From the NCBI GenBank assembly GCA_016197185.1, contig JACPWH010000187.1, forward strand, positions 1 through 56,358: a DNA stretch of 56,358 bases. Reading direction: 5' to 3'. Source of the DNA: Ignavibacteriota bacterium (GTDB lineage Bacteria; Bacteroidota; Ignavibacteria; Kapaibacteriales; UBA961). The position numbers were made by a program, and so were the translations under genes. Position 1 is the stretch's first letter. Each line of letters begins with the position of its first letter. The notes beneath the pieces are model-generated. The model ran no database searches and was not told the DNA's origin. It was given only the letters and a program-made list of their open reading frames with translations. Shown here in pieces: positions 8,999 to 39,300 of the stretch.

Positions 8999-9464
8999 GA
9001 GATTACCCCGAAAAAATAGTAAGAAATGATTATGTTGCTTGTTAAACAGAATTTTACACTTCAAATTACAGCAATAATAGGAAATATAATAATAAAAATT
9101 TTCAATTTGCGACGATTGTTCGTTTCAACGCGTACCAAACACTCACTATTTGCTATTTTTGTGTGTACGGCTGTGTATTTATTGGTAATTTTGACTGTTG
9201 ATATCGAATGTGATATTCAAAATTGCAATAATGATTGATTTGGTAAAAAATCATGGTTGTTTTCTCCAATTCATTCGAATCAATAACAGACCATTAAACT
9301 GAACACTCTTAACAACAATTCTGAATGTTTTAAAATGAAACTCCCCTGCAGTTAGCAATAACACGAAAGTATTCAATACGTTTCATAATTTTAAAATTTT
9401 TTATCGGACACAACTTACATTTCAGCCATATTTTATCGTCGTTTTTCTATCTGAAAGCCACATT

Positions 9465-22860: not shown

Positions 22861-25143
22861 TCAATTTCTCAATACTTCAAATGCACGGAAGTACTTACCT
22901 TTTCGATCTAGTTCAAATGTTGCAGGATATTCTTTTTCGTAGGTAATGTTCGGAGAAGTACCTGCTGCAATAAATACACTTCCTGCCGGTAATTCAATGG
23001 TAGTGTTCTCTTCTGTCCGTTCAAAGAGAACAGATTTTACTGCTCCAAATTCATCAAGTTTTGCTTCAAGGGGTACCATGTTCTCGACAATTTCTATCCC
23101 CTCCTCAAGAGCTTCATGTACTTCTTCATGATTCAATCTATATGCAGGTGCATCTTGTAATCGTTTTCTATAAACGAGTTTCACACCTCCCCAACTTTTT
23201 AAGAGAGGAAGAAAATTAGGTATTTCTCCATTTTCTTCTGCCCGTTTTCTTTCAGCAATAATTTGCTTCCCATGTTCATAATATTTTTGTGCAAGAATAG
23301 TTTCTTCACGATCAAAAAGAGAATGAAAACCATTTTCCCCAAGTGATTTTTTTAATTCGTCAGCCTCTATTACAAATTTTTCCACTTGAACGGGATAATA
23401 TGCAAGTGCTTCTGTTGCTGTATCAATTGCTGTAAGTCCACCGCCAATTACAATTGCCGGCAGGTTTATTTGCAGATTTGCAAGTGAATCATATTTTGCA
23501 GCACCTGTTAACTGCAATGCCATTAGGAAATCCGATGCCTTACGAATCCCCCTTGACAGGTTATTCTTCATATCAATGATTGTAGGTTTTCCAGCTCCTG
23601 TTGCAAGTGCAATGTGATCAAAACCTAACTCCCATGCATCATCTATTGTTATTGTACCTCCAAAACGTACACCGTCAAGTATTGTGAATGTATTCCTTCT
23701 GTAAAGTAGTAAATGGAGTACAGTAAGAAAATTTTTATCCCACCTAACTGTAATTCCATATTCACTCACCCCGCCGAATCCTTCCAGAACACGTTCATTC
23801 AGTTCCTTTTCAATTTCTTTTTTATAGTTATAGATAGGAACCGGGGGCCGGTTTTCACTTCCTGTCATTTCGACTGGAAACGGTTCTATCTTTAACCCGT
23901 CGATTCCTACAACGGCAAAACCTTCGTTTAATAAGTAATGAGATAGTGTATATCCTGCCGGACCAAGCCCGACCACCATTACTTTCTTACCATTGTATGG
24001 CAATGCGTAGGGTCTGTTAATATTTAATGGATTCCAGCGTGTGAGTAATCCATAGATTTCGAATCCCCATGGTAAATTTAGAACATCGGTCAACACTGAT
24101 GTTTCTATTTGAGGGATGTTAACCGGATCTTGTTTTTGAAATATGCATCCCTTCATACAGTCGTTACAGATTCGATGACCTGTGCCGGCACACATAGGAT
24201 TGTCAAGTACTACCATTGCAAGAGCACCAATTACATAACCATGTTCCTTCAATGAATGCATTTCCGATATACGTTCATCTAAAGGGCATCCCGTTATATC
24301 TATTCCAAGAGGATTTTTCTTGATAGAACCATCTTTTTCGTTCATTCCTGTCGAGCATGAATCTTTCTCTCGTTCATGGCAAATCAGACAATACTCAATT
24401 TCTGAAGTTATTTGGCGAGTTGAATCTCTTTTATCTGTTAATGCAAAACCGTTTCTTCTTCGAGTATGTGGCGAGGTGATTACTTCTTGAATTTCAAATT
24501 CAGGGCGAACTATCTCCACCAAATTTTCAAAATCCAGTTTATCTGGTATTTGTGAAGTTATCCATGTTGTAAGAGATTCCGGCAGGAGATGCCGTCTTAG
24601 AAAATAGTATTCCTCTAAAAGTTCTAGATTACTTCTGTCTTCTGCTCTTTCGTTTATTTTAATCTCATCTATATAGTTTGTAACTAACCTTGCAAAGCCC
24701 AGTTCCTCATCCTTCCAATCAAATTGTGCAAATTTTTCTAGTTCGACCTTATAGTTAGATGATAATTCTTCATATCGTTCGTAACTCGTAATTTCAGGTT
24801 TGTCTTTTTTCTTGAGAATCCCTTTTTTAATAAACTCTCTTTTGAGTCTCATAATGAGTTCTTCACTATGGAATTTCTGTTGTATCAAACCGGCTTCTTT
24901 TTCTATCCCAAAAAGCTTTATGATAAATGATTCTACCGCTCTTGATGTATCAATTAGAATTTGTGATATTTCTGTTTTTTTTAATCCTGTTTCTTTTTGA
25001 TAACGGTATTTTTCAAATAAGGCAAATGATTCAGGTGATCTTTCTTTGTAAAAACTGTCAAACTCCAAAGTCAATTCACATAATTTAAATGGATTGTATA
25101 GATCATTATATGAAAATTGGTTTATTCCTAATTCTAAAAGCAT
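22861..25143 (-). CDS. GltD-like (glutamate synthase small-subunit-like) FAD/NAD(P)H pyridine-nucleotide oxidoreductase with Cys-rich Fe-S motifs and a ~250-aa N-terminal helical extension
   Basis: 760 aa, ATG start, no signal peptide. Cys clusters CLICHEREKDSCS...TGCP and CAGTGHRICNDCMKGC. Two Rossmann motifs: KKVMVVGLGPAGYTLSHYLLNEGFAVVGIDG and AIVIGGGLTAIDTATEA. Confidence 0.8.
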   Translation of the reverse strand: MLLELGINQFSYNDLYNPFKLCELTLEFDSFYKERSPESFALFEKYRYQKETGLKKTEISQILIDTSRAVESFIIKLFGIEKEAGLIQQKFHSEELIMRLKREFIKKGILKKKDKPEITSYERYEELSSNYKVELEKFAQFDWKDEELGFARLVTNYIDEIKINERAEDRSNLELLEEYYFLRRHLLPESLTTWITSQIPDKLDFENLVEIVRPEFEIQEVITSPHTRRRNGFALTDKRDSTRQITSEIEYCLICHEREKDSCSTGMNEKDGSIKKNPLGIDITGCPLDERISEMHSLKEHGYVIGALAMVVLDNPMCAGTGHRICNDCMKGCIFQKQDPVNIPQIETSVLTDVLNLPWGFEIYGLLTRWNPLNINRPYALPYNGKKVMVVGLGPAGYTLSHYLLNEGFAVVGIDGLKIEPFPVEMTGSENRPPVPIYNYKKEIEKELNERVLEGFGGVSEYGITVRWDKNFLTVLHLLLYRRNTFTILDGVRFGGTITIDDAWELGFDHIALATGAGKPTIIDMKNNLSRGIRKASDFLMALQLTGAAKYDSLANLQINLPAIVIGGGLTAIDTATEALAYYPVQVEKFVIEADELKKSLGENGFHSLFDREETILAQKYYEHGKQIIAERKRAEENGEIPNFLPLLKSWGGVKLVYRKRLQDAPAYRLNHEEVHEALEEGIEIVENMVPLEAKLDEFGAVKSVLFERTEENTTIELPAGSVFIAAGTSPNITYEKEYPATFELDRKGKYFRAFEVLRN

Positions 25144-25164: not shown

Positions 25165-25968
25165 TTATCTGACTATCATAATTTTGTAATTTGCATTCAT
25201 TCCGGTAGGTTTTTGTACCATAAGATAGTATGCTCCAGATGCAAGATTTTGTACGTCAATGTTATCATTGTTTTCGTTTGAAATACCTGACCAAATCGTT
25301 GAGCCGGTGGGGGAATATATAGTAATTTTGCTGTTTGCTATTGTCCTTACATTAATTAAATCGCTTTCCCGCTCATAATAAACATTATCAATATCAGCAA
25401 TTTCATTATTGATATTATTAACAACAGATTCAATATTATACCATACTGATATATAGAATTTTTTAAGTGCTGTATTTATACTTGGTCCGCTTCTTTTTTC
25501 ATCAAATGGAAATGATGCAATAACTCCGCCCAGGTCATCAGCAAAACGTGCTGAATCAATATATTTTGCTAGTGGATATTCCCATGAAATATAGAATGGG
25601 TCATATCCTCTTAATTCCTGCGGTATTACATCAAATTGATATTTAATCATAAATTTCTTTGTGGGTGGTATTCTTCTATAATCTTTATAGCTAATTCCTG
25701 TTCCAAAGCCATCTGATATTACCAGACCTGCATGAAACCCACTAGGTGGGTGTTGAGGTAGATCAACTTCTCCAAGATTGTAATCTATCGAATCTGTCGC
25801 TCTATCGTCAATCCCAACAATCAACGGTCTTACTACAACGGGTTTTCCTACTGTATCCGAAGCATTGAATTTAAGTTCAACCGTAAATTGACCTTTTAAT
25901 AGTAGTGGCGTACATATTAAAGCAGTAAATACTATGAAATAGGCTCTAATAGATTTATTGATTTTCAT
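25165..25968 (-). CDS. Small secreted T9SS cargo (267 aa) consisting of one ELPPxPP-type module plus a CTD
   Basis: Signal peptide ...CTPLLLKGQ. Module motif LGEVDLPQHPPSGFHAGL ... FYISWEYP. The CTD-like end reads KITIYSPTGSTIW...LASGAYYLMVQKPTGMNANYKIMIVR. The stop lies 21 nt before the oxidoreductase ATG. Confidence 0.8.
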   Translation of the reverse strand: MKINKSIRAYFIVFTALICTPLLLKGQFTVELKFNASDTVGKPVVVRPLIVGIDDRATDSIDYNLGEVDLPQHPPSGFHAGLVISDGFGTGISYKDYRRIPPTKKFMIKYQFDVIPQELRGYDPFYISWEYPLAKYIDSARFADDLGGVIASFPFDEKRSGPSINTALKKFYISVWYNIESVVNNINNEIADIDNVYYERESDLINVRTIANSKITIYSPTGSTIWSGISNENNDNIDVQNLASGAYYLMVQKPTGMNANYKIMIVR

Positions 25969-25987
25969 ACTTGAATTTATTTGTTTT

Positions 25988-26026
25988 AATAAAAAATGGG
26001 CAACGGAGACTATCTCTGTTGCCCAT
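25988..26026 (-). terminator. Strong intrinsic terminator after the 1029-aa gene
   Basis: ATGGGCAACGGAGA (25996-26009) pairs with TCTCTGTTGCCCAT (26013-26026), a 14-bp stem with one G-U pair and a 3-nt loop. On the transcribed (minus) strand a TTTTT-A-TT tail follows. It sits 35 nt after the stop at 26061. Confidence 0.7.
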
Positions 26027-26060
26027 CTTCATGTTATTGTTTCAACAAGACAATCTGATC

Positions 26061-29000
26061 TTAGCGAATAACCGTAAGAACTGTATTTGTAGAAACATCT
26101 CCTGTTGCCATTCTGATTGTATATTGACCGCTTGGCAATGCAACTGTTTCAAATGGAACTGAATAAGTATCAGCATTTTTGAACTCTTGTACTAAAGTAG
26201 CTACTTCGATACCGAGCATATTATATACTTTTAGAGTTACAAATCCATTTTGAGGTACAACATATTCAACTGTTGTCAAACCATTTGCAGGGTTAGGTAC
26301 AGTTGAAATCAATGAGCCTGTAAGCTGCACATCTGATTTTAATAATTTAACAGCTTCAATATTTTGGTCTTTAATAATTACCGTTGAGTTTGAACTATTA
26401 ATTGTACCTAATGATTTGCCTGTTATAATATCAACTACAGTATATGTAGCTTTTGGATCTTGTACTGTAATTGATACAGGATATTCAACACCCTGGAATC
26501 TTACAACAGGAATTGTTGAATTTTCAGCATTTGCATTGTTTGTAAAACGAGCATCGAATAGACCCATCGGAGGCAATGGAGGTAATTCAAAAGCACGTAC
26601 ATCTTTTACATTAGATAAATACAAGTCGTTTGAATGATCTGCTTTATCACTGATTGTAACTTTAGTGCTTGAATTAATTATTGATTGTTTTTCATAATTA
26701 ATATCATCAGCATATTTAACCCCTGATGGAGCAGTCAATTTCAAATAACCGTCATCTGACACAAATATCCAATACCCAAGACCGGGAAGAATTTCTGTAG
26801 TCTCATAGTATCCTCTATCTGTTTTATAACCATAAACACTTTTGATAGGCTTATTAGGAATCGAAGTATTATATGGATCAAAATCAATTGCTGATACTGG
26901 AAGAGGAACACTCAATCCACCAATTGTATTCCATCCCGGAGAAAGACGTACAGGGTTCGTTGTTGCGTTAATTCTATTAATTCTAACACCTGCAACTCTT
27001 GAATCCAAATATTGACCATATTTAATGAAGTATCCTACACCTGCATGAAGTATTTCTTCATTTTGATATGATTGTTGGTAGAATTTATATGGCTGACCAC
27101 CAACTGAATTTGGGTATATAGACGAAGCTCTCAAATCGGACGGAAGAACGGGCAAAGACAATAAGTTCCATCCTTTATTGATAACAGGGAATGATACTAT
27201 CTTAGGCAATGTATATTCTACAACAAATGATGTAATTCTAGCATCTCTGATTGTAAATGACATTCCAGTAGCTGTTGGAGTAGAATTTCTCATATCAACG
27301 CTAAATATTGAGCCATTGAGCGTATCTCTTAAGAATAATTGTGATCCGTCGGGAAAATCTTGTGGATCCCAATTTATAATAATCGGATAATTCTGAGCAC
27401 CATCGGCATTAAATCTTGCTAAAAATAGAATTGATGAGTCAACACCATCATCACGTATATCTCGTGAATGTGAGCGTTGTGCAACACTTCCTTCATTTTC
27501 AATAGGAATTTCGCTAAAACCGTAAGGGGCTATTTCGTTTCCACCAGCATCCTGAACATTTGGATTGAACCATCGTGCATAGAAACCTGTTGGAGGATTT
27601 CTATAAAAGTCTTCACCAAATAAACTGTCAATTCCATCAGTAGCACGGTACCCAGTTCCAAATACTAAATCATTTGATTCTCCGCCTGTACCTTTAGAAT
27701 TAGTAACAGTTAGACGAATACCCCAATCTCTTCCTTGTCTTGGAGCTTTGTATGGGTCAAGAGGATTACGGAAATATATAAATACAACCTTTAATTGTAC
27801 AGGAGAAATAACTGCTGAACCTGAAGAGAACGTTATATAGCCTGTGTAAACACCAGCATATTCTTCACCTGCTTTTCTTAAACTGTCATCTCTGCAGACA
27901 ACACGCATAGTCATAATCTGTTGAGCAGATGCGACCTGATTTCTAGCATCCTTCAAGTTTGGAGGCACAGGACCGTTTATACCATTATCCAAAAACGCTG
28001 CCTTCCCATCTCTGGTTAGTGATGGAAAAGGATTATACCCGTTAGGCAAAGATCTAAACCAAAGCCATGATGCACTTGATTGAGCTGTCATATATGTTAA
28101 TCTACTTCTTGGGGTAGAATTAACAACTAGAATATCCCTTGTTCCATATTTACCAGTGTTTTGACTCGAATCAACTACAATTGGTCTTACAATTTCCCAT
28201 AATGATCCGTCAGGTATATTTTCATTCTGACGGACTTCATTGTTGGTACCACCAATCACATCCCTAAAACCGACAGCAGGGTTTTCGCCTACGTTCACCC
28301 AAATTAAACCTGATTTACTAGGATAATCGGGATAATCATCTGATGTCAAGTTAATTCCGGCTAAACCAATCGTTGGGTTTTTATCTAAGCGATAAAATTT
28401 ATTTCCGTAAGGGTTATTAGCATCACCTTGTGATACCAATGGAAACGGATCATCAATACCTACACGAAATTCACCATAACGAAGGGAATCATTAGTAATA
28501 TACATTGGGGATTTTTCAGCACCACTGTATTTTGCAGGATCGCTTTGCAATTTTTGTTTCGACAATGTTACTTTAAATTTCACATAAAGTAATACTTGAT
28601 ACTGACCATTTTCGTCCGTTAAAGGAAGTCTGCGGTTTGAACGACCTGTGATAAACATTCTTCTACCATATTTCGTTTCAGCATCTGCAGCACCGGTTAG
28701 GTACACTCTATAACGGGTAGGATCTGCCTTGTCATCAATCTCCAATTCGAAATCTTTAGCAAGTGCTGTTATGTCACCACCTATAGGGTCAGTTAATTGG
28801 ACACCATTTGATTGCATAACACGACCATCATACAACAAACCGAATGAGAAACTATATATAGGATAACCACCGAATCTCGCTTCGGTAATCATGGTAGAAT
28901 CCCACCATAAGTTTTGAAGAAAGACAGGAACTAAAATCTCCCGTTCTTTAACATCTGAAAAACCTAACCAAATTCTTCCATCAGAATAAATTTGATTATT

Positions 29001-29150
29001 ATATCCATTGTTTTGTCCCAAAAGCGACAATCTTGGAATATCTGCTTTTTGCAAAGCATGTAGCTGACTGTTCGTAATGAACAGTGAGCAAGCCGACAAC
29101 AACATTACTATAAGTAATTTGTTCTGCAATTGTAAAAATTGCTTCTTCAT
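26061..29150 (-). CDS. Secreted T9SS cargo (1029 aa) with two ELPPxPP-type modules; otherwise no recognisable domain
   Basis: I chose the ATG at 29148-29150. It is preceded by AAGGAGAGAG and gives the signal peptide MKKQFLQLQNKLLIVMLLSACSLFITNSQLHA. The upstream ATG at 29219 would overlap the previous gene by 41 nt. The CTD reads VPNPANGLTTVEYVVPQNGFVTLKVYNMLGIEVATL...GQYTIRMATGDVSTNTVLTVIR. Confidence 0.85.
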   Translation of the reverse strand: MKKQFLQLQNKLLIVMLLSACSLFITNSQLHALQKADIPRLSLLGQNNGYNNQIYSDGRIWLGFSDVKEREILVPVFLQNLWWDSTMITEARFGGYPIYSFSFGLLYDGRVMQSNGVQLTDPIGGDITALAKDFELEIDDKADPTRYRVYLTGAADAETKYGRRMFITGRSNRRLPLTDENGQYQVLLYVKFKVTLSKQKLQSDPAKYSGAEKSPMYITNDSLRYGEFRVGIDDPFPLVSQGDANNPYGNKFYRLDKNPTIGLAGINLTSDDYPDYPSKSGLIWVNVGENPAVGFRDVIGGTNNEVRQNENIPDGSLWEIVRPIVVDSSQNTGKYGTRDILVVNSTPRSRLTYMTAQSSASWLWFRSLPNGYNPFPSLTRDGKAAFLDNGINGPVPPNLKDARNQVASAQQIMTMRVVCRDDSLRKAGEEYAGVYTGYITFSSGSAVISPVQLKVVFIYFRNPLDPYKAPRQGRDWGIRLTVTNSKGTGGESNDLVFGTGYRATDGIDSLFGEDFYRNPPTGFYARWFNPNVQDAGGNEIAPYGFSEIPIENEGSVAQRSHSRDIRDDGVDSSILFLARFNADGAQNYPIIINWDPQDFPDGSQLFLRDTLNGSIFSVDMRNSTPTATGMSFTIRDARITSFVVEYTLPKIVSFPVINKGWNLLSLPVLPSDLRASSIYPNSVGGQPYKFYQQSYQNEEILHAGVGYFIKYGQYLDSRVAGVRINRINATTNPVRLSPGWNTIGGLSVPLPVSAIDFDPYNTSIPNKPIKSVYGYKTDRGYYETTEILPGLGYWIFVSDDGYLKLTAPSGVKYADDINYEKQSIINSSTKVTISDKADHSNDLYLSNVKDVRAFELPPLPPMGLFDARFTNNANAENSTIPVVRFQGVEYPVSITVQDPKATYTVVDIITGKSLGTINSSNSTVIIKDQNIEAVKLLKSDVQLTGSLISTVPNPANGLTTVEYVVPQNGFVTLKVYNMLGIEVATLVQEFKNADTYSVPFETVALPSGQYTIRMATGDVSTNTVLTVIR

Positions 29151-29178
29151 AACTCTCTCCTTGATATTGTAAGAAGAT

Positions 29179-30405
29179 TTATTTAATAAATTTAATGTAT
29201 TTTCTTTTATTTTCTGCATTTGTAATTATTTCAACGATATAAGCACCATTTTGTATTAAGTTCTGTGGCAAACTAACATTGAATGATGGATACTCTATTT
29301 TAAATCTAACCAATTCAATACCTAAAATATTGAATATTCCTACTTCATTAATAATTTCTGATGAAAACAATTTTATGTTGTTATCACTTTCTATAATCTG
29401 CAAATCAAATTTTACTATATCTTGATCTACTTCTACTGACATTATTGAGTCAGATTTAATTTTTCTAATGTTTGCTATATCACCGCTCAATTTTTTTATG
29501 CAAGTACAAACATTTGTTTGTACTATTCTTGCTGATATAGGTGATGTGAAATTTGAATCTTTTAAAGATTTTAATTTCAAACGTAACGCTGGCAAAGATG
29601 TTTGGAAGTTTTGACTAAAACTGATTTTAACTTGAGTACTATCTTCGTTCTCAATAATTGTATCAATAATTATACTGTTTTGCAGGGTAACTATCGATAC
29701 AATATTCAACAATTTTGAATCACTTGCTCTAAATACAATATTTGCATTTTTTAGTTGCGCATTTTGTTGGAATTGAAGTAGGAGATCAATATCATCAATT
29801 GAATCATTTTTACCTATTTCTAATTCTTTTTGTATAAATAAAGTCTTGAATTCTCTACCGTTTAAATCAGCTACTTCACCTTTAATATATTTCTCTTCAT
29901 CAAATTTAACGTTCCGAACTGTTGTAATGTTTTGATATTCAGCTTCGAAATCACTAATTCTTATCGATGTAAATCCCTCGCATGAATCTTTGTATCTCCC
30001 TTTGAAAGCAATCAAAGGTTCACTACCCTTTACAAAGCTTGAGCCATTTTGAATGAATGCTACCGCATGATAAACACCCGGTTCGAAAAGCCCAAAATAG
30101 CTAAAACCTCCTGCAGCTTCAATTTTACTAGTTAGTGTATTCGGTTTAATTGGCTGTTCTATTATTATTTTATCTTTATCAAACTCAAGATAAAAGTCGT
30201 AACCAATAAGACTGTCTTTTGCATATATTTCATTTGTCTGAACGTATATTTCAATCCTTTTTTCCGAATTACAGACATCTATTATTGATGTAGATGGTAT
30301 AATTTCTACTTTTAAGGTATCCTGAGCTTTCCCTTTCTGCATACCGCTGAGGATTAAAATCACCAGCGGTAGCAGATATGAGAATATTGTTTTGCTATGA
30401 CTCAT
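29179..30405 (-). CDS. Secreted protein (408 aa) with a cohesin-like N-terminal domain and a divergent T9SS-CTD-like end
   Basis: Signal peptide ...LSGMQKGKAQ. The N-terminal domain reads LKVEIIPSTSIIDVCNSEKRIEIYVQTNEIYAKDSLIGYDFYLEFDKDKIII. The C-terminus reads INEVGIFNILGIELVRFKIE...GAYIVEIITNAENKRKYIKFIK. The gene starts 7 nt after the upstream stop. Confidence 0.78.
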   Translation of the reverse strand: MSHSKTIFSYLLPLVILILSGMQKGKAQDTLKVEIIPSTSIIDVCNSEKRIEIYVQTNEIYAKDSLIGYDFYLEFDKDKIIIEQPIKPNTLTSKIEAAGGFSYFGLFEPGVYHAVAFIQNGSSFVKGSEPLIAFKGRYKDSCEGFTSIRISDFEAEYQNITTVRNVKFDEEKYIKGEVADLNGREFKTLFIQKELEIGKNDSIDDIDLLLQFQQNAQLKNANIVFRASDSKLLNIVSIVTLQNSIIIDTIIENEDSTQVKISFSQNFQTSLPALRLKLKSLKDSNFTSPISARIVQTNVCTCIKKLSGDIANIRKIKSDSIMSVEVDQDIVKFDLQIIESDNNIKLFSSEIINEVGIFNILGIELVRFKIEYPSFNVSLPQNLIQNGAYIVEIITNAENKRKYIKFIK

Positions 30406-30412
30406 TGTAAAA

Positions 30413-33217
30413 TTATTTTACAATTGATATCTTTTGCGTATAGATTTGATTATTACCTTTCAAACGAACAAAATAAACACCGTTGTTAAGTGATTGCCCA
30501 TTGTTATCATAACCGTTCCACTCAAAAGACATCGAACCTGATTTTGAATTACCATTAAAGATTGCTTTAACATCCTTACCTACTACATCAACTATATCAA
30601 TAGTATAGAATCCATCAGTAGGAATGTTGAATTCCAATTTTGTTGACGATGAGAATGGATTCGGGAATGTAGATATAACACCGGTAACTGCTAAATCTTT
30701 TTCTTCTAATGTTAGAGATTGTGCGTTTTGTCTTCTCTCATTGAATTCAACAGTTGATGTATTAAGCACACCATTTTGAGTTTCTACTGTCACATAAGCA
30801 ATTGGATCAATTTCATTAAATTCACCTGAAGCAGCAATAACTATTTTACTGTCATTGTGATCTGCTACAATTGTATTTGATTGATTTTCAATTGTCTCGA
30901 CATCCAGTACTTTTCCGTCAACTGTAAATTCGGCACTTATTCCATTAGCAGTACCGTTAAGATAGACCGGTATTTTATATATATTATTTGCTAAAGTAGT
31001 GTAAGTATTTAGCTTGATGTTATCCGCAGGTTTAGTTCCTATAGTAGCTTTTCCAAAAATTCCTAATGTATCCCATATCCATGGCAAAGAAGGAATTCTT
31101 GCTGAAATATACATAAGAATATCACTTGCATCCTTAGCATTTGCTTCATAATAAATCAAACGTAATGGACCTGCATCCGGTGGAAGACCTGCTAAACTTT
31201 CTACAGAATCTCTTCTTTTTCTTACACCGAAAGTATCAACATCAATTGCTCTTCTCCATAGAATTGTATCTCTCAGATTATCAAGAGTTCTTGATGAATA
31301 ATAGTAACGACCGTTATGATTAACATCAGCATGATAATTATTACCTAAGCGTAATGTATCTTTTCTTAAGCTGTCAGGTAATGATTTATCTTGAATCAAC
31401 CATCTCATGATTAATCTTGAATCATTCACTGTTACAAATCTGTTTTGAATCATCGCAGCGTGTTTACGTACACGAATTTGACTTAAATCTGCATCTCCGT
31501 CACCCCAACCAGGACTGGCTGAACGTGGAATAGCTCTGAAGAATATTCTTCTGCCTTCGCCATTATTAGTTCCGCTTGATGGTCTCCAGTTTTGAGTTAG
31601 CTGCTCACTTGTGAAAGCTGTTTGAATATTATCATAGGTAAGTCCGTTGATAAAATCGCTTTTGATAAGGAACAACCCGCTTGCAGAGCCTTTTAAACCA
31701 ACTGAAGCATTTTTGTATGAAACAGTTGTCAGAGGAGTAAATGTATTTCCACCAACATCACCGTAAGCAAATTCAACTCCGCCTGCAAAGTTATTAGGGA
31801 ATCTATCATCAACACCTTCATAAAGGATTGCTTGGAAATTACCTACACTTGAAGGCAGTGTTTCATCCATTATATTCAAGTTTTTCCACTGAACAATCAA
31901 TCTTCTGTTTGGATATGAACCAAGAACCAAGTAAGATATTTCCGATCCTAAGTACTGACCGTTTGAAGATGGAGTGGCTTGCTCACCCGGCACTCTTAAA
32001 TAGTGATCACCCCAGAAAGGAGCAATTACATTGTTTGGATACGAAGAGCTGTAAAGGAACAATCCATTGGCTTGATCATTTGCAATTGATGAAAAGACAT
32101 CAGGATTTTGGAATGTAGCAAATCCATTAACATTAATCCAAATACTTGGCTGTTTAATTCCTTGGAAATTAAAGTCAAAATTTAATGAACTTAAATCAAC
32201 TCTGTAAAACCCGTCATCTCTATCAGTTCTAAAACCATTAACCTGAGGTATAAATCTTGATTCAAACCAAATAGGATTAATTGCTAACGATTTTTGATAA
32301 GCTTCAAAACGAATAATACTGGAAACAGTACCTGATGGAACCCATCCCGAAGTTAATGCAGTTGAAGTAGTAGCAAGGTTTGGATTGATATATGAGAGAC
32401 CATTTAAATATTCTCCATTCGCACCTTTTAGACCAACTGATGCACCATTGTAATATGTTGGATCAACAGGACCATTACCACCAAAAGGACCATAGGAGAA
32501 ATCAATGTCATTTTGAGTGTTTAATTGTGGCTGACCGGCATTTGTCGGTATTTGTCTTTCCCACAGAATAACTTGAAAATTAGCTAATGCTGCATTATCG
32601 GTTGCTGCATTTCCTTTAATATTTACACTTAGATTTTTCCACTGTATAACGATTTTTCTTTTAGGAGCAGCACCAAAAACTTGCCATGATATATCGGATT
32701 CTTTTCCTACTACATCAGTTTGGTAAAGATGATTTCCCCAATAAGGGGCTATTATGTTTGAAGGCAGAACATTTGCAAATAAATCAGAACTAGAATTACC
32801 AACATATCCCGGAGCTACTGGACTAGTATTTACTATTACAAAACCATTTACCGATATCCATAAGTATCCTGTTCCAGCAGGATAAGTAGTTCCATTATAC
32901 TGAATGGTAAATGGAAGTTGAGCTTGCAAATATCCTGCATCTGCAGCTGGAGATCCTTTAGCAGGCGGAATCATTTTAACTCTGTCCGGACCATTTTCAG
33001 TTAATTCATTGTAAACAACATTGCTTACTAACATTGGACCATTGTATCTGCTTGCGAAAGACAAAGGGCTTATACTGTAATCTTTGTACAGTTTCCCTTC
33101 GTTTATAACCGGCGCATCGAATTCATCATAAATTCTTTGTGCCTTAACTTGGGTTGATAGCAGTAGCGTAAAAGATAATGCTGCTATCAACGCTAAAAAT
33201 ATACGTCTACGATTCAT
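30413..33217 (-). CDS. Secreted T9SS cargo (934 aa): duplicated NIDO-like module, a possible dockerin-like segment, a cohesin-like domain and a CTD
   Basis: The track start at 33256 is GTG. I used the ATG at 33215-33217 (GGAG lies 7 nt upstream), which gives the signal peptide MNRRRIFLALIAALSFTLLLSTQVKAQ. The CTD reads STFPNPFSSSTKLEFNIPTDGFYTIDIVDVVGKDV...GVYFVRLKGNNQIYTQKISIVK. Confidence 0.85.
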   Translation of the reverse strand: MNRRRIFLALIAALSFTLLLSTQVKAQRIYDEFDAPVINEGKLYKDYSISPLSFASRYNGPMLVSNVVYNELTENGPDRVKMIPPAKGSPAADAGYLQAQLPFTIQYNGTTYPAGTGYLWISVNGFVIVNTSPVAPGYVGNSSSDLFANVLPSNIIAPYWGNHLYQTDVVGKESDISWQVFGAAPKRKIVIQWKNLSVNIKGNAATDNAALANFQVILWERQIPTNAGQPQLNTQNDIDFSYGPFGGNGPVDPTYYNGASVGLKGANGEYLNGLSYINPNLATTSTALTSGWVPSGTVSSIIRFEAYQKSLAINPIWFESRFIPQVNGFRTDRDDGFYRVDLSSLNFDFNFQGIKQPSIWINVNGFATFQNPDVFSSIANDQANGLFLYSSSYPNNVIAPFWGDHYLRVPGEQATPSSNGQYLGSEISYLVLGSYPNRRLIVQWKNLNIMDETLPSSVGNFQAILYEGVDDRFPNNFAGGVEFAYGDVGGNTFTPLTTVSYKNASVGLKGSASGLFLIKSDFINGLTYDNIQTAFTSEQLTQNWRPSSGTNNGEGRRIFFRAIPRSASPGWGDGDADLSQIRVRKHAAMIQNRFVTVNDSRLIMRWLIQDKSLPDSLRKDTLRLGNNYHADVNHNGRYYYSSRTLDNLRDTILWRRAIDVDTFGVRKRRDSVESLAGLPPDAGPLRLIYYEANAKDASDILMYISARIPSLPWIWDTLGIFGKATIGTKPADNIKLNTYTTLANNIYKIPVYLNGTANGISAEFTVDGKVLDVETIENQSNTIVADHNDSKIVIAASGEFNEIDPIAYVTVETQNGVLNTSTVEFNERRQNAQSLTLEEKDLAVTGVISTFPNPFSSSTKLEFNIPTDGFYTIDIVDVVGKDVKAIFNGNSKSGSMSFEWNGYDNNGQSLNNGVYFVRLKGNNQIYTQKISIVK
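31529..32935 (-). repeat. Internal tandem duplication (coding) of a ~215-aa NIDO-like module (copy 1 at 32297-32935, copy 2 at 31529-32209)
   Basis: Copy 1: WISVNGFVIV...NIIAPYWGNHLY...KIVIQWKNLS...ANFQVILWE...IDFSYGPFGG...ASVGLKGANG...NGLSY. Copy 2: WINVNGFATF...NVIAPFWGDHYL...RLIVQWKNLN...GNFQAILYE...VEFAYGDVGG...ASVGLKGSAS...NGLTY. Confidence 0.7.
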
Positions 33218-33275
33218 AAAGACTCCAAATATTTTTTTTCTAAATAATTTTTTCACGTTGTTAATTGTGATGGCG

Positions 33276-33306
33276 TTTGGCTCTCTTTATTGCAAAGAGA
33301 GCCAAA
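33276..33306 (-). other. Perfect 13-bp intercistronic stem-loop between the 2490-aa and 934-aa genes (no T-tail)
   Basis: TTTGGCTCTCTTT (33276-33288) and AAAGAGAGCCAAA (33294-33306) flank a 5-nt loop. It sits 14 nt after the stop of the giant gene. No U-run follows on either strand. Confidence 0.5.
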
Positions 33307-33319
33307 TCCATTCAATAAT

Positions 33320-36300
33320 TTATCTAACAAGCATCATTCTTTGTGCTGTGCTAAATGCTCCTGATGTCATTTTTACAAAATAGACACCTGAAACCATATT
33401 AACTCCTGCATCATTCTTTGCGTCCCATTTAATTTCAGTTTTACCTGCACTTAAGAAACCATCAACAAGAGTTTTTACTTTATTACCCATAGCGTCATAC
33501 ACTTCAACCTTTACATTTGAAGCTGTTGGTATGCTCATTATCATGTTTGATTGACCTGAAGACGGATTAGGATTGCTTTCACCTAATTCAAAAGAAGTAG
33601 GCATACCTGTTTCAGGCTCATTAACTGCACTGATAAAGTCATATATAATGATAAAGCCATCAATATCATCTTTATTAACTCTAATAGTAGAGATACTTCC
33701 ACTTTGGTCATAATCAACAATAGTTGATGCATGAGCACCTTGTCCGGTTCTCATATTGTAACCAAAGAAATTACCGTTTGAAATATTATCTCTTATCCAC
33801 CATGTAGCACCGCTTGGGTTCTTAGTGGTATTAGTTTTATCAGGAACATCATCTCTATTCCAAGAAATTGTTACAGGGAAGGCATGTGAAAGACTACCTG
33901 TAATGTCACCTGCTTGGAATCTTGCTTTGTATGTTGAAGAATTAGCATCTTTAGGTACTGAAGTCGGGAATATATTCCTTATAATACCATTTCTCAATGC
34001 AATTGTCCAACGTGCATCAAATACATCTCTTGGTGGAATTGGAGGAAGCTCGAATTCACAATAATTTGAATCTAATCTTCCTAACTCGTCTGCTTTTTCA
34101 CCAGTAGTTGCATTTTTTGCCGAGCCGAAGTAAAGTACTTGGAATGCACCCAAATCTTTGTTGTTAGAAACAGTAACCGGAACCAAGAAGTCTGTTGGAT
34201 CAGATATATTAAGTTTATATTCTAAAAACTTAGTTACTTCACCATCTGTAATTTGCACTCTTATTGTAATCTTTCCATCAACCACTGCGTTTGCAGGGAA
34301 TGTAAAAGGACCATTTGATTTGATAATTACTTTTTGAGTAGTGTCAACTTTAGTACCTCTGATAGCAGCAGGTTCAATAGTCAGATTAGTTCCTGTTGGG
34401 GAAACAATTGATATTCTGATTTCTTCTATAATCGGATCAAATGTAGCTGAAGTATCCCACCATGGTTTTTCTCTTAACAAATCTAAATCTTGTGCAAAGA
34501 GAGTGTCCAAATATGTATCACCATCACCAATGCAACGTACTATTGGTGCTGTCAACAATTTAGGATCATGATTCGAAGAATCAACTTCCAATATAAATGT
34601 TTTAACATCATTTAAACCACCTGCATCAGTAATCACTACAGTCACTGTATCAGGGTTGCCCAATGTTATAGAACGTGGAGCATCCTTAATACCAGGTGTA
34701 CCTGATAAAAGACCGCTAACCGGATTGATTTTTAACCATTTTGGAGTTTTCTTGATACCTCTAACATCCCAGAAACCTGCTTCTCTGAAACAAGGATCTT
34801 TTGCAATCATTGTATCTGCGTCTGTTGGGTACAACAATTTGAATTTCTGAGCTTGACCAAAGTTAGGGTCGAAATATTCGATTTTTCTAGGTCTGTTAAG
34901 AAGATCCGTGTTATAGTCTAAGCCTTCTTTAGCTTTATCCAAACTTGTGTTTAAGATAGTAGGTGATACGTTTACAAAAACACGTTTGGTTAAATAGCTA
35001 AGTCCACCGTGACCGTCATTTACAACCAAAGTGATCAATGTGTCCGTATTAAGTCCACCATTTGCTTGATCTGCAGGGCTGAGAGGTTTTAATAAATTCA
35101 AAGCCTCAGCTCGAGGAATACGGATATTTGCAACACCACGTTCAGTAAAGTCAGAACCGAATTTATCAGAGAATGACAATACATGATCAACCAAGTAAAC
35201 TGCAGTATCCAATACTATAGGAATTAGAGGACCATTGTCGGTCATTCTTTGTCTAATATCAATTACCGTATCTCTTTTCACAACCTTAGATGTTGAATAG
35301 TTATTGATAACAGTTACATCAGTAACAATACTATCCACTTGGAAAATATTTACAGTAGTCGAATCCTTAAATCCATTCACCAATATCTTAACATTAGCAG
35401 CGTATTGCGTGTCTATTGTATTTTCAATATTGATTGTTGCCTTGTCGCCAAGCAATACATCTTCTCTAAACATATATTGCTCAACCATCCAATTAGGTCT
35501 AACTTGATATATCTCATCTATTGAAGTATCACCCGGAGTCGTTCTTATTGATTTTGAAAGGAACGCATACGAAGTTTTACCATATTTGAAATCCCAGTTT
35601 TCTCTATTTGCAGCTACTGAATCTTCTTTTTCGTCATCTGTATTGAAGTCTGCATAGAAACGCAGTTTATCAGTTACATTCGCAACTAAAAGTTGTTGTG
35701 TACCCAAACCGCAAGCTGCACTTGGTCTTGTTGTGTTAGCAAAAACAGGCAAGCTATCCATTACAAAAATCATAAAACGATATACTGAAGAATCAGATGA
35801 ACCGAAATTCAATGTATCTTGGTTCAAATAACGCGCATTTCCAATTGGAGGACTTACAATAGGATCAGAATCATATTTCTGAGCGTGGAAATAAGAAGGA
35901 TACAAATAAATAAATTTGGATAAAGTATCAACTATAAATGCACTGTCTGTTGGATTCCCTGATGAATCAGCTCTTGAATGTAAATAAATGTTTTTGAGTG
36001 CATCTACAATTCTTGCACTTGAAGCATAGTTTTTGACAACAACTTCCATCCATTCACCACCTGGAACTACATACGGATTCGATGGTTTTCCTTTAAGCTC
36101 TACCCAACCTGTAGCACCATAATACGATGGATTTGGTGTGCGAGGCGTAATTGTTTTTGGGTTTTTTGTCGGCCAAATAGTATCAGCTGTAATCCATCTG
36201 CGTAATGCAGTCAATTTATTTGGGAATACATCTCTAACTGTATCACCGTAAGGTCCTACATAAAGCGGGAACCATGAAATTTCAAGCTGATTATATCTTT

Positions 36301-39300
36301 TGAGTGTTGTATCATTCGGTTTAATAGCACCATTAGCATCAATATCCAATGCCCAACGTGGGTCATACATTAAATTTGAATCAATAGCTGATATTACAAA
36401 AATCGAATCACGTCCTTTTTTGTTAGGATCCGGAACTCTGCTATAGCTTTCATCTTCTTCTACAAAGATTTTGTTTTTATAACTGCTAAAATATATAGCA
36501 CTAACTTTTGGATTTTCTGTTGTTATCTTATTGCCAGTAAATACAGGTGGAGGAGTAGAAGTTGTAATTCTAAATCCTAAACCTTTATCGATAGCAGTAT
36601 CTACGCCATCTCTCCATAAAACTGTTCTTGAGATAACTCTTACAAAATCACCCGGACGAACAGGTAATGTATTCCAGCGTTCACCAGCAAAATATGTTAC
36701 AATTGTATCTGAACCGCTTGCTAACGATGCAGGCATACTTGGTCTATTTGAATAAATAACTCTTTGACCATTGTTATAAAGAATACCTCTTTTGTTTAAG
36801 GCTGAAGACATAAATACATCGTATTTTCTTCCACCTAATGCTGAAATGTCCTCATTATAAGCTGTATCAGCTAATCTTGGCAATAATGTTTCCGTGCCGC
36901 CAAAATTATAAAGACCCTCATAAGTTCTACGAACACGAGCACTTGTGCCTGTTCTTTCTGATGAATCAGGAACAAAATCTACTCTTCCGCGAAGAATTTC
37001 CTTTGGATAAACACCATCATTATTTAATGTCTGAACATCTGTAAATTGATTCATGTTTATACGGATGTAATCTCCCGTTGAATCATTTATTACAAAAAAT
37101 ACAGAACCATTTAATGTTGTAGGGTCATCATTATTCGAATTAATGTCTTCACCTTGGTATCTTGCTCTTGCTTCCAAGAATAGAGGATATCCAATCGGAT
37201 GACTTTGTTCATTTGTTCTATAGTCAGGAGCAAATTCAGTTTGCAATCTTCTTAATTGTCTCCACAAAACATTTTCTCTATTTGTAGCATAGTTAAGAGA
37301 GTCAGTTGCAAAAGGATCTTTTGTCAATCTACGTACATATTTGTTAAATGATGCTTTTGTAGAATTTGAATAACGCTGTAGTTTCGGTGGAATACCGACA
37401 GAGAAATCTTCAATTGGGGACATTCTTCTTGCTGAATAATCAGCAGTTTTCATATCCGTACCTTTATCAAAGAAATCATAAATACGACCAGCCATCAAAA
37501 GTGTATCCGGAATTTTTCCAATTTGTATCGGAGTGTAGGTATATCCGGGGAAGCCATTTTGTTCAAATGGTCCTTGTTGTGTATCGTCAGTTCTTCCTGT
37601 TCTTAGGAATCTCATGTGAGTATTGCCGTTACCCTGTATAAAGAAGGTTTCTTGAATACCGCCATTTACAAATCCGGGTTGTGAAGTTTTAATTACTGTA
37701 TTGACATTTGCCTGAGTAGCACCCCAATAGTTTCCTCTCAAAGTATCAACACCACCAAAACCAATACCTGCACCCCCTGAAAGCACACTTTTTGAATTTG
37801 GTGCATCAGGCAAACGGATAATAAATCTTGCATCATTATCATATATTGAGTTTGCAGCTATATTAAATGATGTCCATGGAATAGGACCGATAATATCACC
37901 ATAGAAAGTTGCGCCGGCTAAATCACTTGAAGCTTGATTATCAGGGTTGATAAATGGTCCACTTATCACATCTTGAGTTCTACCTACAGGAGATGTAGCT
38001 CTGTTAGAAGTAACCAAACATCTTGTTAAAACAAGTTTCAAATCATAGTTATCTGAATAAACCGCTGATCCGGTATATGCTGTATTGTTTTGAATACGAA
38101 CACGGTTTAAAAATACTGAGTCTGTTCTGTATCTTCGATTGAGTGTAACACTATCCAATATATAGATCGCACCACCCATACCGATACCATTTTCACGTAA
38201 TCCGTTTCCTAAAACATCACGGATAAATCCAGGGTGGAATCTTTTTATATCAATAATATTTGCACCCATTTGTGTTGCTCCGCTACCTAATAATCTTGAA
38301 TCAGGGTTTGGTTCTGCAATATTATTGTAAAATCTTGTTAAGCTTCTTACATCAGCAGCAACCGCAGCAATTTTTCTATTGTCATAAAGGCTGTCATTAG
38401 AAATATAAGCTGTTGCTGTTCCATTAGGCTGAATTGTTAACTGGTCAGCATCAGTAATGAAGAATCTTTTTGAAGAAGTGCGTGGATGTATCATCGCAAT
38501 CGCACCACCATTACTATTGAAAGCACTGTTATTATTAAATTCAACACCTTTTACAACATTCAAATCACCATTCATTGAATAAACCGCACCACCACCTCTT
38601 ACTTGTTTCAACATTTCAAGACCGGTTGAAGAAGCAAAGCGACCTGTTGTATTATTCAAGAATTGAGTTCTTACCAATCTAATGTAGCGTTGTTCGATTG
38701 GAACCGGAGGTTCAATACTTGGTAAATGTATTGCAATAGCACCTCCAGAAAGACCTGATGTGTTATTCGCAAAACGAATACTGAATCCTGTCCCATACGA
38801 TTGCGCCAAAGGAAGATCATTTATAAATCCACCCGCACCATAAGAAGTCATATTTCTTTTTGTAAATACTGCTCCGCCATGTGCGATTGCCGTATTGTTT
38901 TCGAAGTTGATTCTTCTTCCATAATCTCTTAATCTTGGATTTGGAATATCAGAACCACCAATAATCGGAGAAGGACGAGGGTCTGTATTTCCATCAACAT
39001 ATACTGCACCACCCGACCCTGCTCTATTATTTACGAATTCCGTTCCAAGGCTTGGATGACCTCTAAGTTGCAAACGACCTAATGTGTTTTCGTGGAATAT
39101 CGCACCACCTAAAGCATATTGATCACTATTGCTGTTTGCTTGGTACGGAGTTTCAGCATAATTATTCGTAAACGAACCGTTAATAATCATGGATGTATAT
39201 TTACCAATATACAACGCTCCACCTTTCGCTCCTCTTGAATTTGGAGAGAATTGGCGGTTTGTAACATGATTGTTAATGAATGTAACAAAGTCTTTTGAAC

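Follow-up and report, generated by a model that had tools for sequence, protein, structure and literature searches.

A recurrent, so far unnamed and probably extracellular domain in T9SS cargo proteins of an Ignavibacteriota gene cluster

Four segments in three cargo proteins of an Ignavibacteriota gene cluster are copies of one genuine, so far unnamed and probably extracellular domain of about 145 aa, and their similarity extends beyond any Pro-rich motif. We regard the module as a real domain because it is matched by an independent HMM, because its copies align across the consensus and because two confident AF2 models agree. The same module is shown here to recur widely as a building block in multidomain proteins with an apparent Sec signal and a T9SS type A CTD, both in Ignavibacteria-like and in other FCB-group bacteria. 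As to its role, we lean towards a single unnamed all-beta module that is displayed on the cell surface via T9SS and most likely serves in binding, as an adhesin or in a lectin-like manner.

Four copies in a cluster of T9SS cargo genes

The window (the whole 56,358-nt stretch of contig JACPWH010000187.1 that was analyzed) contains five co-oriented T9SS-cargo genes in one cluster on the minus strand, three of which (p267, p1052 and the giant) encode the module.

25165-25968, minus strand: p267 gene, with an apparent signal peptide (25891-25968), the module, a linker of about 22 aa and a T9SS type A CTD (25168-25359)
25996-26026, minus strand: hairpin between p1052 and p267, with a 14-bp stem and a T-run on the coding strand, terminator- or attenuator-like
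26061-29150, minus strand: p1052 gene (1029 aa), whose ORF reaches 29219, with a CTD (26064-26297)
29179-30405, minus strand: p408, a T9SS-CTD protein without the module and a conserved cluster member
30413-33256, minus strand: p947, a T9SS-CTD protein without the module, with a weak NIDO-like match, also a conserved cluster member
33320-40792, minus strand: p2490, the giant, with PMP-type repeats, a He_PIG Ig-like domain, the module and a CTD (33323-33571)

The CTDs of p1052, p947 and the giant score 23.7, 35.4 and 28.8 bits with TIGR04183 (cut-off 23), while that of p267 reaches 26.6 bits with the same model and 28.5 bits with Por_Secre_tail (PF18962; cut-off 27); the CTD of p408 stays below the TIGR04183 cut-off (19.7 bits, E 6e-4). 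The N-termini are hydrophobic with KG↓Q or KA↓Q-type sites when the translations are read by eye. No T9SS machinery gene (SprA/Sov, PorU, PorV and others) was identified among the window ORFs scanned, so that secretion by this route is read from the CTD alone. The p1052 gene probably starts at an internal ATG at 29150. Its product consists of an N-terminal region of about 470 aa, module copy 1, a 'GWN' mid-domain, a short copy 2 and the CTD; neither the N-terminal region nor the mid-domain matches a family in Pfam or NCBIfam, and the span from module to CTD (aa ~495-1052) is 25-30% identical to many ORFs of other genomes.

We searched all 192 window ORFs of at least 60 aa with an HMM built from 181 instances in other proteins, none of them 35% or more identical to any window protein. 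The independent HMM matched exactly four places, with a next best E of 0.16, and found no module in p408, in p947 or in the T9SS proteins at 4667-9064 and 18916-22836.

25426-25890, minus strand: p267 module (aa 27-181), full length; i-E 6.2e-19, HMM positions 4-144; divergent motif stretches LPQHPPSGFHAGL and SYKDYRRIPP
26325-26678, minus strand: p1052 module copy 2 (aa 848-965); i-E 2.4e-7, HMM positions 39-137
26679-27197, minus strand: p1052 mid-domain (aa 675-847), with the half-repeats GWNLLSLP...GVGYFIKY and GWNTIGGLSVP...GLGYWIFV
27198-27734, minus strand: p1052 module copy 1 (aa 496-674, ORF numbering); i-E 3.3e-22, HMM positions 3-141
33623-34192, minus strand: giant module (aa 2201-2390); i-E 8.7e-18, HMM positions 3-121

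These matches bear out the first-pass annotation, which had seen four copies on three proteins: all eight peptides that it quoted lie on the minus strand in the proteins to which it assigned them, and the HMM matches nothing elsewhere in the window. Its description of the 267-aa protein as essentially the module plus a CTD likewise agrees with the gene's layout. It had put the module directly before the CTD in two proteins, which is in fact the arrangement in all three. Pairwise Smith-Waterman scores, compared with 300 shuffles, were high for p267 and p1052 copy 1 (z 7.9), for p1052 copy 1 and the giant (z 7.5 over about 200 aa) and for p1052 copy 2 and the giant (z 11.7). The remaining pairs (p267 with p1052 copy 2, p267 with the giant, and the two p1052 copies with each other) are weak alone, and the four copies are linked transitively. 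With the independent HMM, i-E values run from 2.4e-7 to 3.3e-22, and the alignment is thus significant beyond the Pro-rich motif, as had been asked of it.

The four places had been located correctly, but the segments had been started at the Pro motif, and the domain opens some 40 aa before that point, with a pair of beta strands and the ATDGxD loop. These strands lead into the loop ATDGxDxxLGExELPPxPPxGxFDARF, a long ordered element between strands 2 and 3 that is the best-conserved part of the module; a DYR loop, an aromatic residue, a (Y/F)PIxIxW strand and an LxDxxxG turn follow. The family signature comprises G23, A28-T-D, D33, E38, P43/P45, F50-D-x-R53, D66-x-R68, W94 and D108 (HMM numbering), and in an alignment to the family consensus these residues are mostly retained in three window copies. 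The giant module carries the canonical EFELPPIPPRDVFDARW motif and insertions in its loops, the p267 module has FHAG where the family has FDAR, and p1052 copy 1 spans the full length and has about 30 aa inserted behind its FYARW motif. Copy 2 of p1052, which adjoins the CTD, is a short form: it lacks positions 1-38, with the ATDGxDxxLGE loop, and the DYR loop, and V replaces W94. A similarly truncated match occurs in the CTD-proximal module of paralogues at four other loci (L016, L032, L036 and L096).

Distribution, synteny and proposed role

An exhaustive profile search yielded 1607 clusters at 50% identity (E ≤ 1e-3), with 711 clusters at E ≤ 1e-10 and 60 at E ≤ 1e-30; word-indexed searches with the four-copy alignment and with a canonical module returned only 9 and 10 matches, far short of the family's extent. 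Its host organisms comprise Ignavibacteria, Melioribacteraceae, Calditrichota, KSB1, Marinimicrobia and Bacteroidota MAGs. When genomes were scanned with a degenerate DNA pattern, the PPxPPxGxFDARF coding pattern turned up in at least 120 genome stretches (by our own estimate, chance would give about 0.3), and 105 of 120 pattern stretches were HMM-confirmed among the matches listed. Proteins often contain 2-7 copies, which alternate either with FN3 spacers of about 100 aa or with spacers of about 150 aa. Por_Secre_tail was present in 42 of the 63 family proteins scanned, whose partner domains are adhesin-type (fn3, Big_9, cadherin-like, He_PIG, FG-GAP and Laminin_G_3) and rarely enzymes. In 80 of 150 representatives, the first module comes immediately after the apparent signal peptide and occupies the end of the chain most distant from the C-terminal anchor.

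Relatives keep the five-gene cluster in synteny. The p408-p1052-p267 triad is still found at 24-38% identity, p408 is syntenic in L001-L003 and L080, and p267 stays beside p1052 even at 28-31% identity. Orthologues of p267 are 260-268 aa long and those of p1052 are 1029-1032 aa long; module identity among orthologues is 55-86%, with intact ORFs. A GGGCAAC...GTTGCCC hairpin with a T-run occupies the equivalent position in L001, L002, L003, L012, L080, L124 and L125, and the changes in its stem across these loci preserve pairing. Constant co-occurrence of the module with T9SS CTDs and with this neighbourhood, raised as a question in the first-pass annotation, holds in part: the CTD is usual and the neighbourhood conserved, but the module is not special to the cluster. 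The same annotation had taken recurrence within one locus as a pointer to a shared binding or assembly function. A locus-specific function of this kind is plausible, yet the recurrence is weak evidence for it, because the module occurs in so many clusters and, among the matches listed, on several contigs per MAG and in two or more ORFs at 36 of 105 module-positive 8-kb loci; recurrence is common for the module.

The cargo proteins would be exported by Sec, passed through T9SS, relieved of their CTD and fixed to the outer surface, and the module would thereby be displayed outside the cell. The protein p267 would then be one lipid- or LPS-anchored module and little more. Surface display is indicated because CTDs reach curated cut-offs, because apparent signal peptides can be read in the sequences and because Por_Secre_tail is frequent in the family. 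A binding role is suggested indirectly, because the partner domains are adhesin-type and rarely enzymes, because the first module so often sits at the N-terminal tip, because the stand-alone p267 is kept beside p1052 even at 28-31% identity, and because orthologous modules remain similar in intact ORFs. The conserved acidic and Pro-rich loop may be a stabilizing element, possibly Ca2+-binding, or may contact a ligand; it could also be a mere fold determinant.

It is rather unlikely that the module instead serves assembly, binding its own copies or another protein of the cluster and joining the giant, p1052 and p267 into a non-covalent surface complex. Such an arrangement would recall the adhesin domains common to the P. 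gingivalis gingipains and HagA, or scaffolds of the cohesin type. Its presence in three proteins of one conserved cluster, the p408-p1052-p267 order kept in distant genomes and the loci with two or more module-bearing ORFs among the matches listed would accord with such a complex, as would the dockerin found in some family proteins (P0020 and P0025; Dockerin_1). However, hundreds of unrelated architectures contain the module, as do arrays of tandem paralogues, a pattern that gene duplication explains equally well, and two members of this cluster, p408 and p947, are without it.

We also hold it fairly improbable that the module is a passive structural unit, a rigid spacer or stalk, possibly Ca2+-stabilized, that extends or stiffens surface proteins as Ig/FN3 repeats do. 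Tandem modules with FN3 spacers would fit a purely structural stalk, the module often lies immediately N-terminal of the CTD, and most of its conserved positions are Gly, Pro, Asp, Arg or Trp, as is typical of fold determinants. Against this, p267, a protein of module and anchor only, is conserved, and the preference for the N-terminal tip is hard to reconcile with a spacer.

Predicted fold and search for a named family

AF2 models of the p267 and giant copies are all-beta, with 9-10 strands. The structure prediction proposed for the 267-aa protein gave a confident model of its module (pLDDT 91.8, pTM 0.86, about 10 beta strands), and that of the giant's module (pLDDT 81.3, pTM 0.81) has the same strand order; the long loop after strand 2 is predicted in both.

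The first-pass annotation recognized no named domain here, and our searches of Pfam-A, NCBIfam, PDB sequences and solved folds came back equally empty. Pfam-A (2025) and NCBIfam r20 placed no family on the four window copies or on 61 module sequences of the family. Family profiles matched no PDB sequence (best E 0.28), and the whole of p1052, p947 and the giant matched PDB sequences only at FlgD-like CTDs. Foldseek searches of the PDB with both models gave no match at E ≤ 1e-3 (best E 0.29 and 0.18), TM ≤ 0.31 among the 50 matches listed, and no similarity to known lectin, CBM or adhesin folds. BFVD held one structural neighbour, the unnamed viral model I1ZBD4 (TMq 0.59, E 6.8e-3), and a canonical module had no tblastn match in 50,697 phage records. 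The literature on T9SS, Ignavibacteria, cohesin, DUF4945 and Por_Secre_tail yielded no description of the module.

Like the module, the FN3, Big/Ig-like, cadherin-like and He_PIG domains of T9SS cargo are extracellular, all-beta and 100-150 aa long, and are repeated and shuffled side by side with it in type A CTD proteins; in contrast, they have no sequence match to the module and no Foldseek match links it to their solved structures, and they lack its long Pro- and Asp-rich loop. Cleaved_Adhesin (PF07675) or haemagglutinin-adhesin domains are common to RgpA, Kgp and HagA of Porphyromonas gingivalis. There, one adhesin-type module serves several T9SS cargo proteins of one organism, which is the best functional analogy, but PF07675 matches no module, there is no structural match, and the domain is present in 1 of 63 family proteins, elsewhere in the chain than the module. 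The cohesin and CBM domains of cellulosome-like systems are also non-catalytic beta-sandwiches on surface proteins, and a few family members carry Dockerin_1, but neither profile nor fold matches the module and catalytic partners are rare in its family. We rejected cohesin-like, CBM-like, Ig/FN3-like and MATH/TRAF-like identities, none of which had a significant sequence or fold match.

DUF4945 (PF16303) is the only Pfam family with a recurrent weak signal, on module strands 5 to 7. None of the four window copies reaches its gathering score, and 2 of 61 members match it weakly (best E 0.06); the 28.6 bits of P0020 (cut-off 28.4) are reached only by summing partial matches to about 34 of the 115 profile positions, and no individual stretch passes. 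As these matches are partial and sub-threshold, and 59 of 61 members give nothing, the module is not a member on present evidence. It is quite unlikely that the module is a very divergent member of some family already described, for example DUF4945, an Ig, CBM or jelly-roll superfamily or a MATH/TRAF-like sandwich: the summed score of P0020, weak TRAF/USP7-MATH entries among the Foldseek matches listed (E 0.3-1) and the viral model hint at such a relationship, whereas none of the 61 module sequences has a passing match in Pfam or NCBIfam and PDB profile and fold searches stay far from significance.

A more far-reaching proposal, which we consider very doubtful, is that the module is a new fold that recognizes itself or a partner and ties the giant, a beta-helix protein, to p1052 and to the small, fast-evolving p267 in a surface complex of Ignavibacteria-like bacteria that is anchored through T9SS, the conserved terminator before p267 setting the stoichiometry by read-through. 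That a short proline-rich motif recurs by chance, outside any domain, can be dismissed, although three of the six pairwise scores fall short of significance when taken singly, since profile E-values of 1e-7 to 1e-22 across 100-140 match positions refute it, as do the concordant models and thousands of homologues.

Meaning for the family

T9SS cargo proteins shape the cell surface across the FCB group and, to our knowledge, the majority of their domains still lack annotation except in a few Bacteroidota models. The module locus does not represent a new type of biological system. What it contributes is a domain found in at least 1600 protein clusters that has neither a Pfam or NCBIfam entry nor a solved structural neighbour. 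Its limits, its consensus, its long and short forms and the architectures in which it typically occurs are now defined, and it is ready for registration as a new family. The domain is also well suited to structure determination and to screens for ligands, because p267 offers a natural single-domain construct. Together with the giant, the p408-p1052-p267 triad forms a small conserved set in which to ask whether proteins that share the module also share a ligand or assemble physically. If the new-fold assembly were true, it would be a third route to multi-protein surface machines, beside cohesin-dockerin pairs and gingipain adhesin domains.

Four copies of one domain in a five-gene cluster

The module, an all-beta domain of about 145 aa, lies in a cluster of five co-oriented minus-strand genes (25165-40792) with intergenic gaps of 7-92 nt, named here by product length:

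33320-40792, minus strand: the giant, 2490 aa, one module
30413-33256, minus strand: p947
29179-30405, minus strand: p408
26061-29219, minus strand: p1052, two modules
26679-27197 (aa 675-847 of p1052): 'GWN' mid-domain, two half-repeats, unannotated
25996-26026, minus strand: hairpin with a 14-bp stem and T-run, between p1052 and p267, 27 nt ahead of the p267 ATG
25165-25968, minus strand: p267, one module
22861-25143: Pyr_redox_2 gene, 760 aa, 21 nt downstream of p267

The p1052 gene probably starts at an internal ATG at 29150, yielding the 1029 aa of the first-pass annotation (orthologues have 1029-1032 aa); compared to the ORF limit at 29219, this start abolishes a 41-nt overlap with p408. 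Each of the five proteins has a T9SS type A C-terminal sorting domain (CTD; Por_Secre_tail / TIGR04183 / FlgD_ig) at its end, the p408 match being below cut-off. The only other Pfam and NCBIfam matches are PMP repeats and a He_PIG domain for the giant and, weakly, NIDO-like ones for two segments of p947; the module segments have none. Besides the CTDs, no PDB-sequence relatives were found for p947 or for about 2000 aa of the giant (PMP-type repeats), and the whole five-gene cluster is structurally uncharted. Two more large surface-type proteins (IgGFc_binding, ASH/HYDIN Ig-like, DUF1573, LTD) are encoded at 4667-9064 and 18916-22836. The module is absent from both; the CTD of the 4667-9064 protein is below cut-off, and a CTD search of the other, of 1306 aa, detected none. 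Secreted surface proteins are abundant in this region.

The first-pass annotation had claimed four unannotated copies, and every peptide quoted for them was found in the window. Pairwise local alignments, scored against shuffles, joined the copies transitively (z is 7.9 for p267 and p1052 copy 1, 7.5 over about 200 aa for p1052 copy 1 and the giant, and 11.7 for p1052 copy 2 and the giant); the remaining three pairs were weak. We then ran an independent HMM, built from 181 domain instances of non-window proteins and leaving out instances at least 35% identical to window proteins, against every one of the window's 192 stop-to-stop ORFs. It matched exactly four places: p1052 copy 1 (E 3.3e-22, HMM positions 3-141), p267 (6.2e-19, 4-144), the giant (8.7e-18, 3-121) and p1052 copy 2 (2.4e-7, 39-137). 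No fifth copy was found among these ORFs, the next best having an E of 0.16. Therefore, the four-copy observation is real, far beyond chance, and extends beyond the short Pro-rich motif. The segments originally delimited were N-terminally short, because the domain starts about 40 residues ahead of that motif. Copy 2 of p1052 is a short form that lacks the ATDGxDxxLGE and DYR loops, though strands 1-2 are discernible by eye (TKVTISD, NDLYLS); many paralogues of other genomes also carry this short form, as their CTD-proximal module.

Database matches and predicted fold

Neither the four window copies nor any of 61 family members had a meaningful match in Pfam-A (2025 copy) or NCBIfam r20. The sole recurrent faint signal was DUF4945 (2 of 61 members, best E 0.06); one three-copy family protein scored 28.6 bits where the cut-off is 28.4, with no single stretch passing. 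Profile searches of PDB sequences found no relative of the module (E at least 0.28), and no description of the domain was found in the literature.

AlphaFold2 modeled the p267 module from a 61-sequence alignment with a pLDDT of 91.8 and a pTM of 0.86, predicting about ten strands and a long, well-ordered loop (residues 29-53) that bears the conserved motif. The giant's copy (pLDDT 81.3, pTM 0.81) was predicted to share this order of elements and to contain disordered insertions as well. Compared to 350,542 PDB chains, Foldseek returned zero matches at E of 1e-3 or below for both models (best E 0.29 and 0.18; TM at most 0.31 among the 50 listed per model). The only structural neighbor of the p267 model was an unnamed viral protein of 379 aa (BFVD I1ZBD4; TMq 0.59, E 6.8e-3, prob 1.0); a tblastn search of 50,697 phage genomes with a canonical module gave no match. 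On this evidence from sequence and models, the domain is unnamed, as first claimed, and has no solved structural neighbor. The models possibly represent a new fold; a very remote link to a known superfamily is also possible.

Family size, hosts and architecture

Word-indexed searches returned few matches, among them canonical relatives such as P0009-P0019 (FGLDxTATDGIDPALGESDLPPFPPAGVFEARF...SSYKDYRNAPAFPFTG). An exhaustive profile search of 1.84 billion cluster representatives found 1607 proteins at E of 1e-3 or below, 711 at 1e-10 and 60 at 1e-30. We also scanned GTDB species genomes with a degenerate DNA pattern for PPxPPxGxFDARF and found at least 120 stretches, where we estimate about 0.3 matches by chance. 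Among the matches listed, hosts were MAGs labeled Ignavibacteria/Ignavibacteriae, Melioribacteraceae, Calditrichota/Caldithrix, KSB1, Marinimicrobia and Bacteroidota, and a few bins with probably wrong labels. The HMM confirmed modules in 105 of the 120 stretches listed (217 modules in total), 36 of which have at least two module-bearing ORFs within 8 kb. Source annotations, where given, read 'hypothetical protein' or 'T9SS C-terminal target domain-containing protein'.

Across 169 family proteins, the copies are separate units of about 145 aa each, mostly 2-3 per protein and up to 7 in some; successive copies are adjacent or spaced by about 100 aa (FN3) or 150 aa. The first copy directly follows the signal peptide in 80 of 150 representatives. 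The last is typically about 80-110 or 190-210 aa from the C-terminus, so that it abuts the CTD or is parted from it by one additional small domain. A Pfam scan of 63 full family proteins found Por_Secre_tail in 42, FlgD_ig in 15 and fn3 in 11, together with Big_9, cadherin-like, He_PIG, FG-GAP, Laminin_G_3 and BNR/sortilin domains, and enzyme domains (e.g. Peptidase_M14) in isolated cases only. Two family proteins from other genomes, P0020 (aa 962-1010) and P0025 (aa 471-517), carry a type I dockerin alongside FN3 and a T9SS CTD, which hints that some FCB lineages use assembly of the cohesin-dockerin type.

In its C-terminal half, p1052 consists of a unit of about 540 aa (module, GWN mid-domain with half-repeats GWNLLSLP...GVGYFIKY and GWNTIGGLSVP...GLGYWIFV, short module, CTD) that is itself widespread, being 25-30% identical in many genomes and often present as 3-4 tandem paralogues (loci L016, L032, L036, L096).

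Conserved synteny and predicted role

The cluster's synteny is conserved. With all ORFs intact, the same gene order (giant, ~930-aa, ~400-aa, ~1031-aa, 267-aa, Pyr_redox) recurs in an ENA metagenome contig, a 'Bacteroidetes bacterium' MAG (GCA_018266765.1) and a Logan assembly. Identities to the window proteins are about 80% for p1052 and for the giant (over the C-terminal ~880 aa, the part present there), about 76% for p947, 41-53% for p408 and 55-69% for the p267 module. More distant loci retain the neighborhood: L124 has p1052-like (58%), p267-like and Pyr_redox (48%) genes, L125 a p1052-like followed by a p267-like (31%) gene, and L080 a p408-like (24%) and a p1052-like (38% over 1069 aa, two modules) gene, followed by an ORF of 260 aa that has a single module. 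The 760-aa Pyr_redox_2 protein has a long N-terminal extension. In L001-L003, L012 and L124 its gene holds the same position beside the cluster, although the protein looks cytoplasmic.

On L012, a MAG contig labeled 'Ignavibacteria', identity is 96% for the C-terminus of p1052, 84% for Pyr_redox and 48% for p267; thus, p267 diverges much faster than its flanks (L012 651-1454 versus window 25165-25968: module 59%, CTD 42%). The p408 protein is likewise fast-evolving (41-53% where neighbors are ~80%). Diversifying selection acting on proteins exposed at the surface may be behind such rapid change. The hairpin ahead of p267 (ATGGGCAAC...GTTGCCCAT, then TTTTTTATT) and its T-run are kept at the same position in seven related loci, distant ones included, with changes that preserve pairing. 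It resembles an internal terminator, an attenuator or an RNA-stability element, and as such would set the level at which p267 is expressed.

The module constitutes a genuine domain family whose boundaries and signature are defined and whose fold is predicted; it occurs together with T9SS CTDs and with partner domains of the adhesin type. In the T9SS, as described in PMC10202324 and PMC5562754, export is CTD-dependent and is followed by surface attachment. By this biology, the module would be displayed on the cell surface, and p267 would be essentially one anchored module. The module's predicted role is most likely ligand binding or adhesion, because it prefers the N-terminal, anchor-distal tip, it is found next to Ig, cadherin and FN3 domains, not enzymes, and a stand-alone module protein persists. 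It is possible that the module instead assembles the cluster's proteins, or that its role is purely structural. The conserved loop, rich in Asp/Glu, is a possible metal-binding site. The first-pass annotation, sound on the copies and on the missing name, understated the module's spread and over-read its recurrence within one locus: the module is common and often clustered elsewhere, and therefore recurrence here alone does not indicate a locus-specific function.

As a domain family the module is new, but it belongs to a familiar kind, the modular extracellular domains of T9SS cargo proteins, and does not amount to a new type of system. The family is useful for annotation and is a reasonable structural-genomics target.
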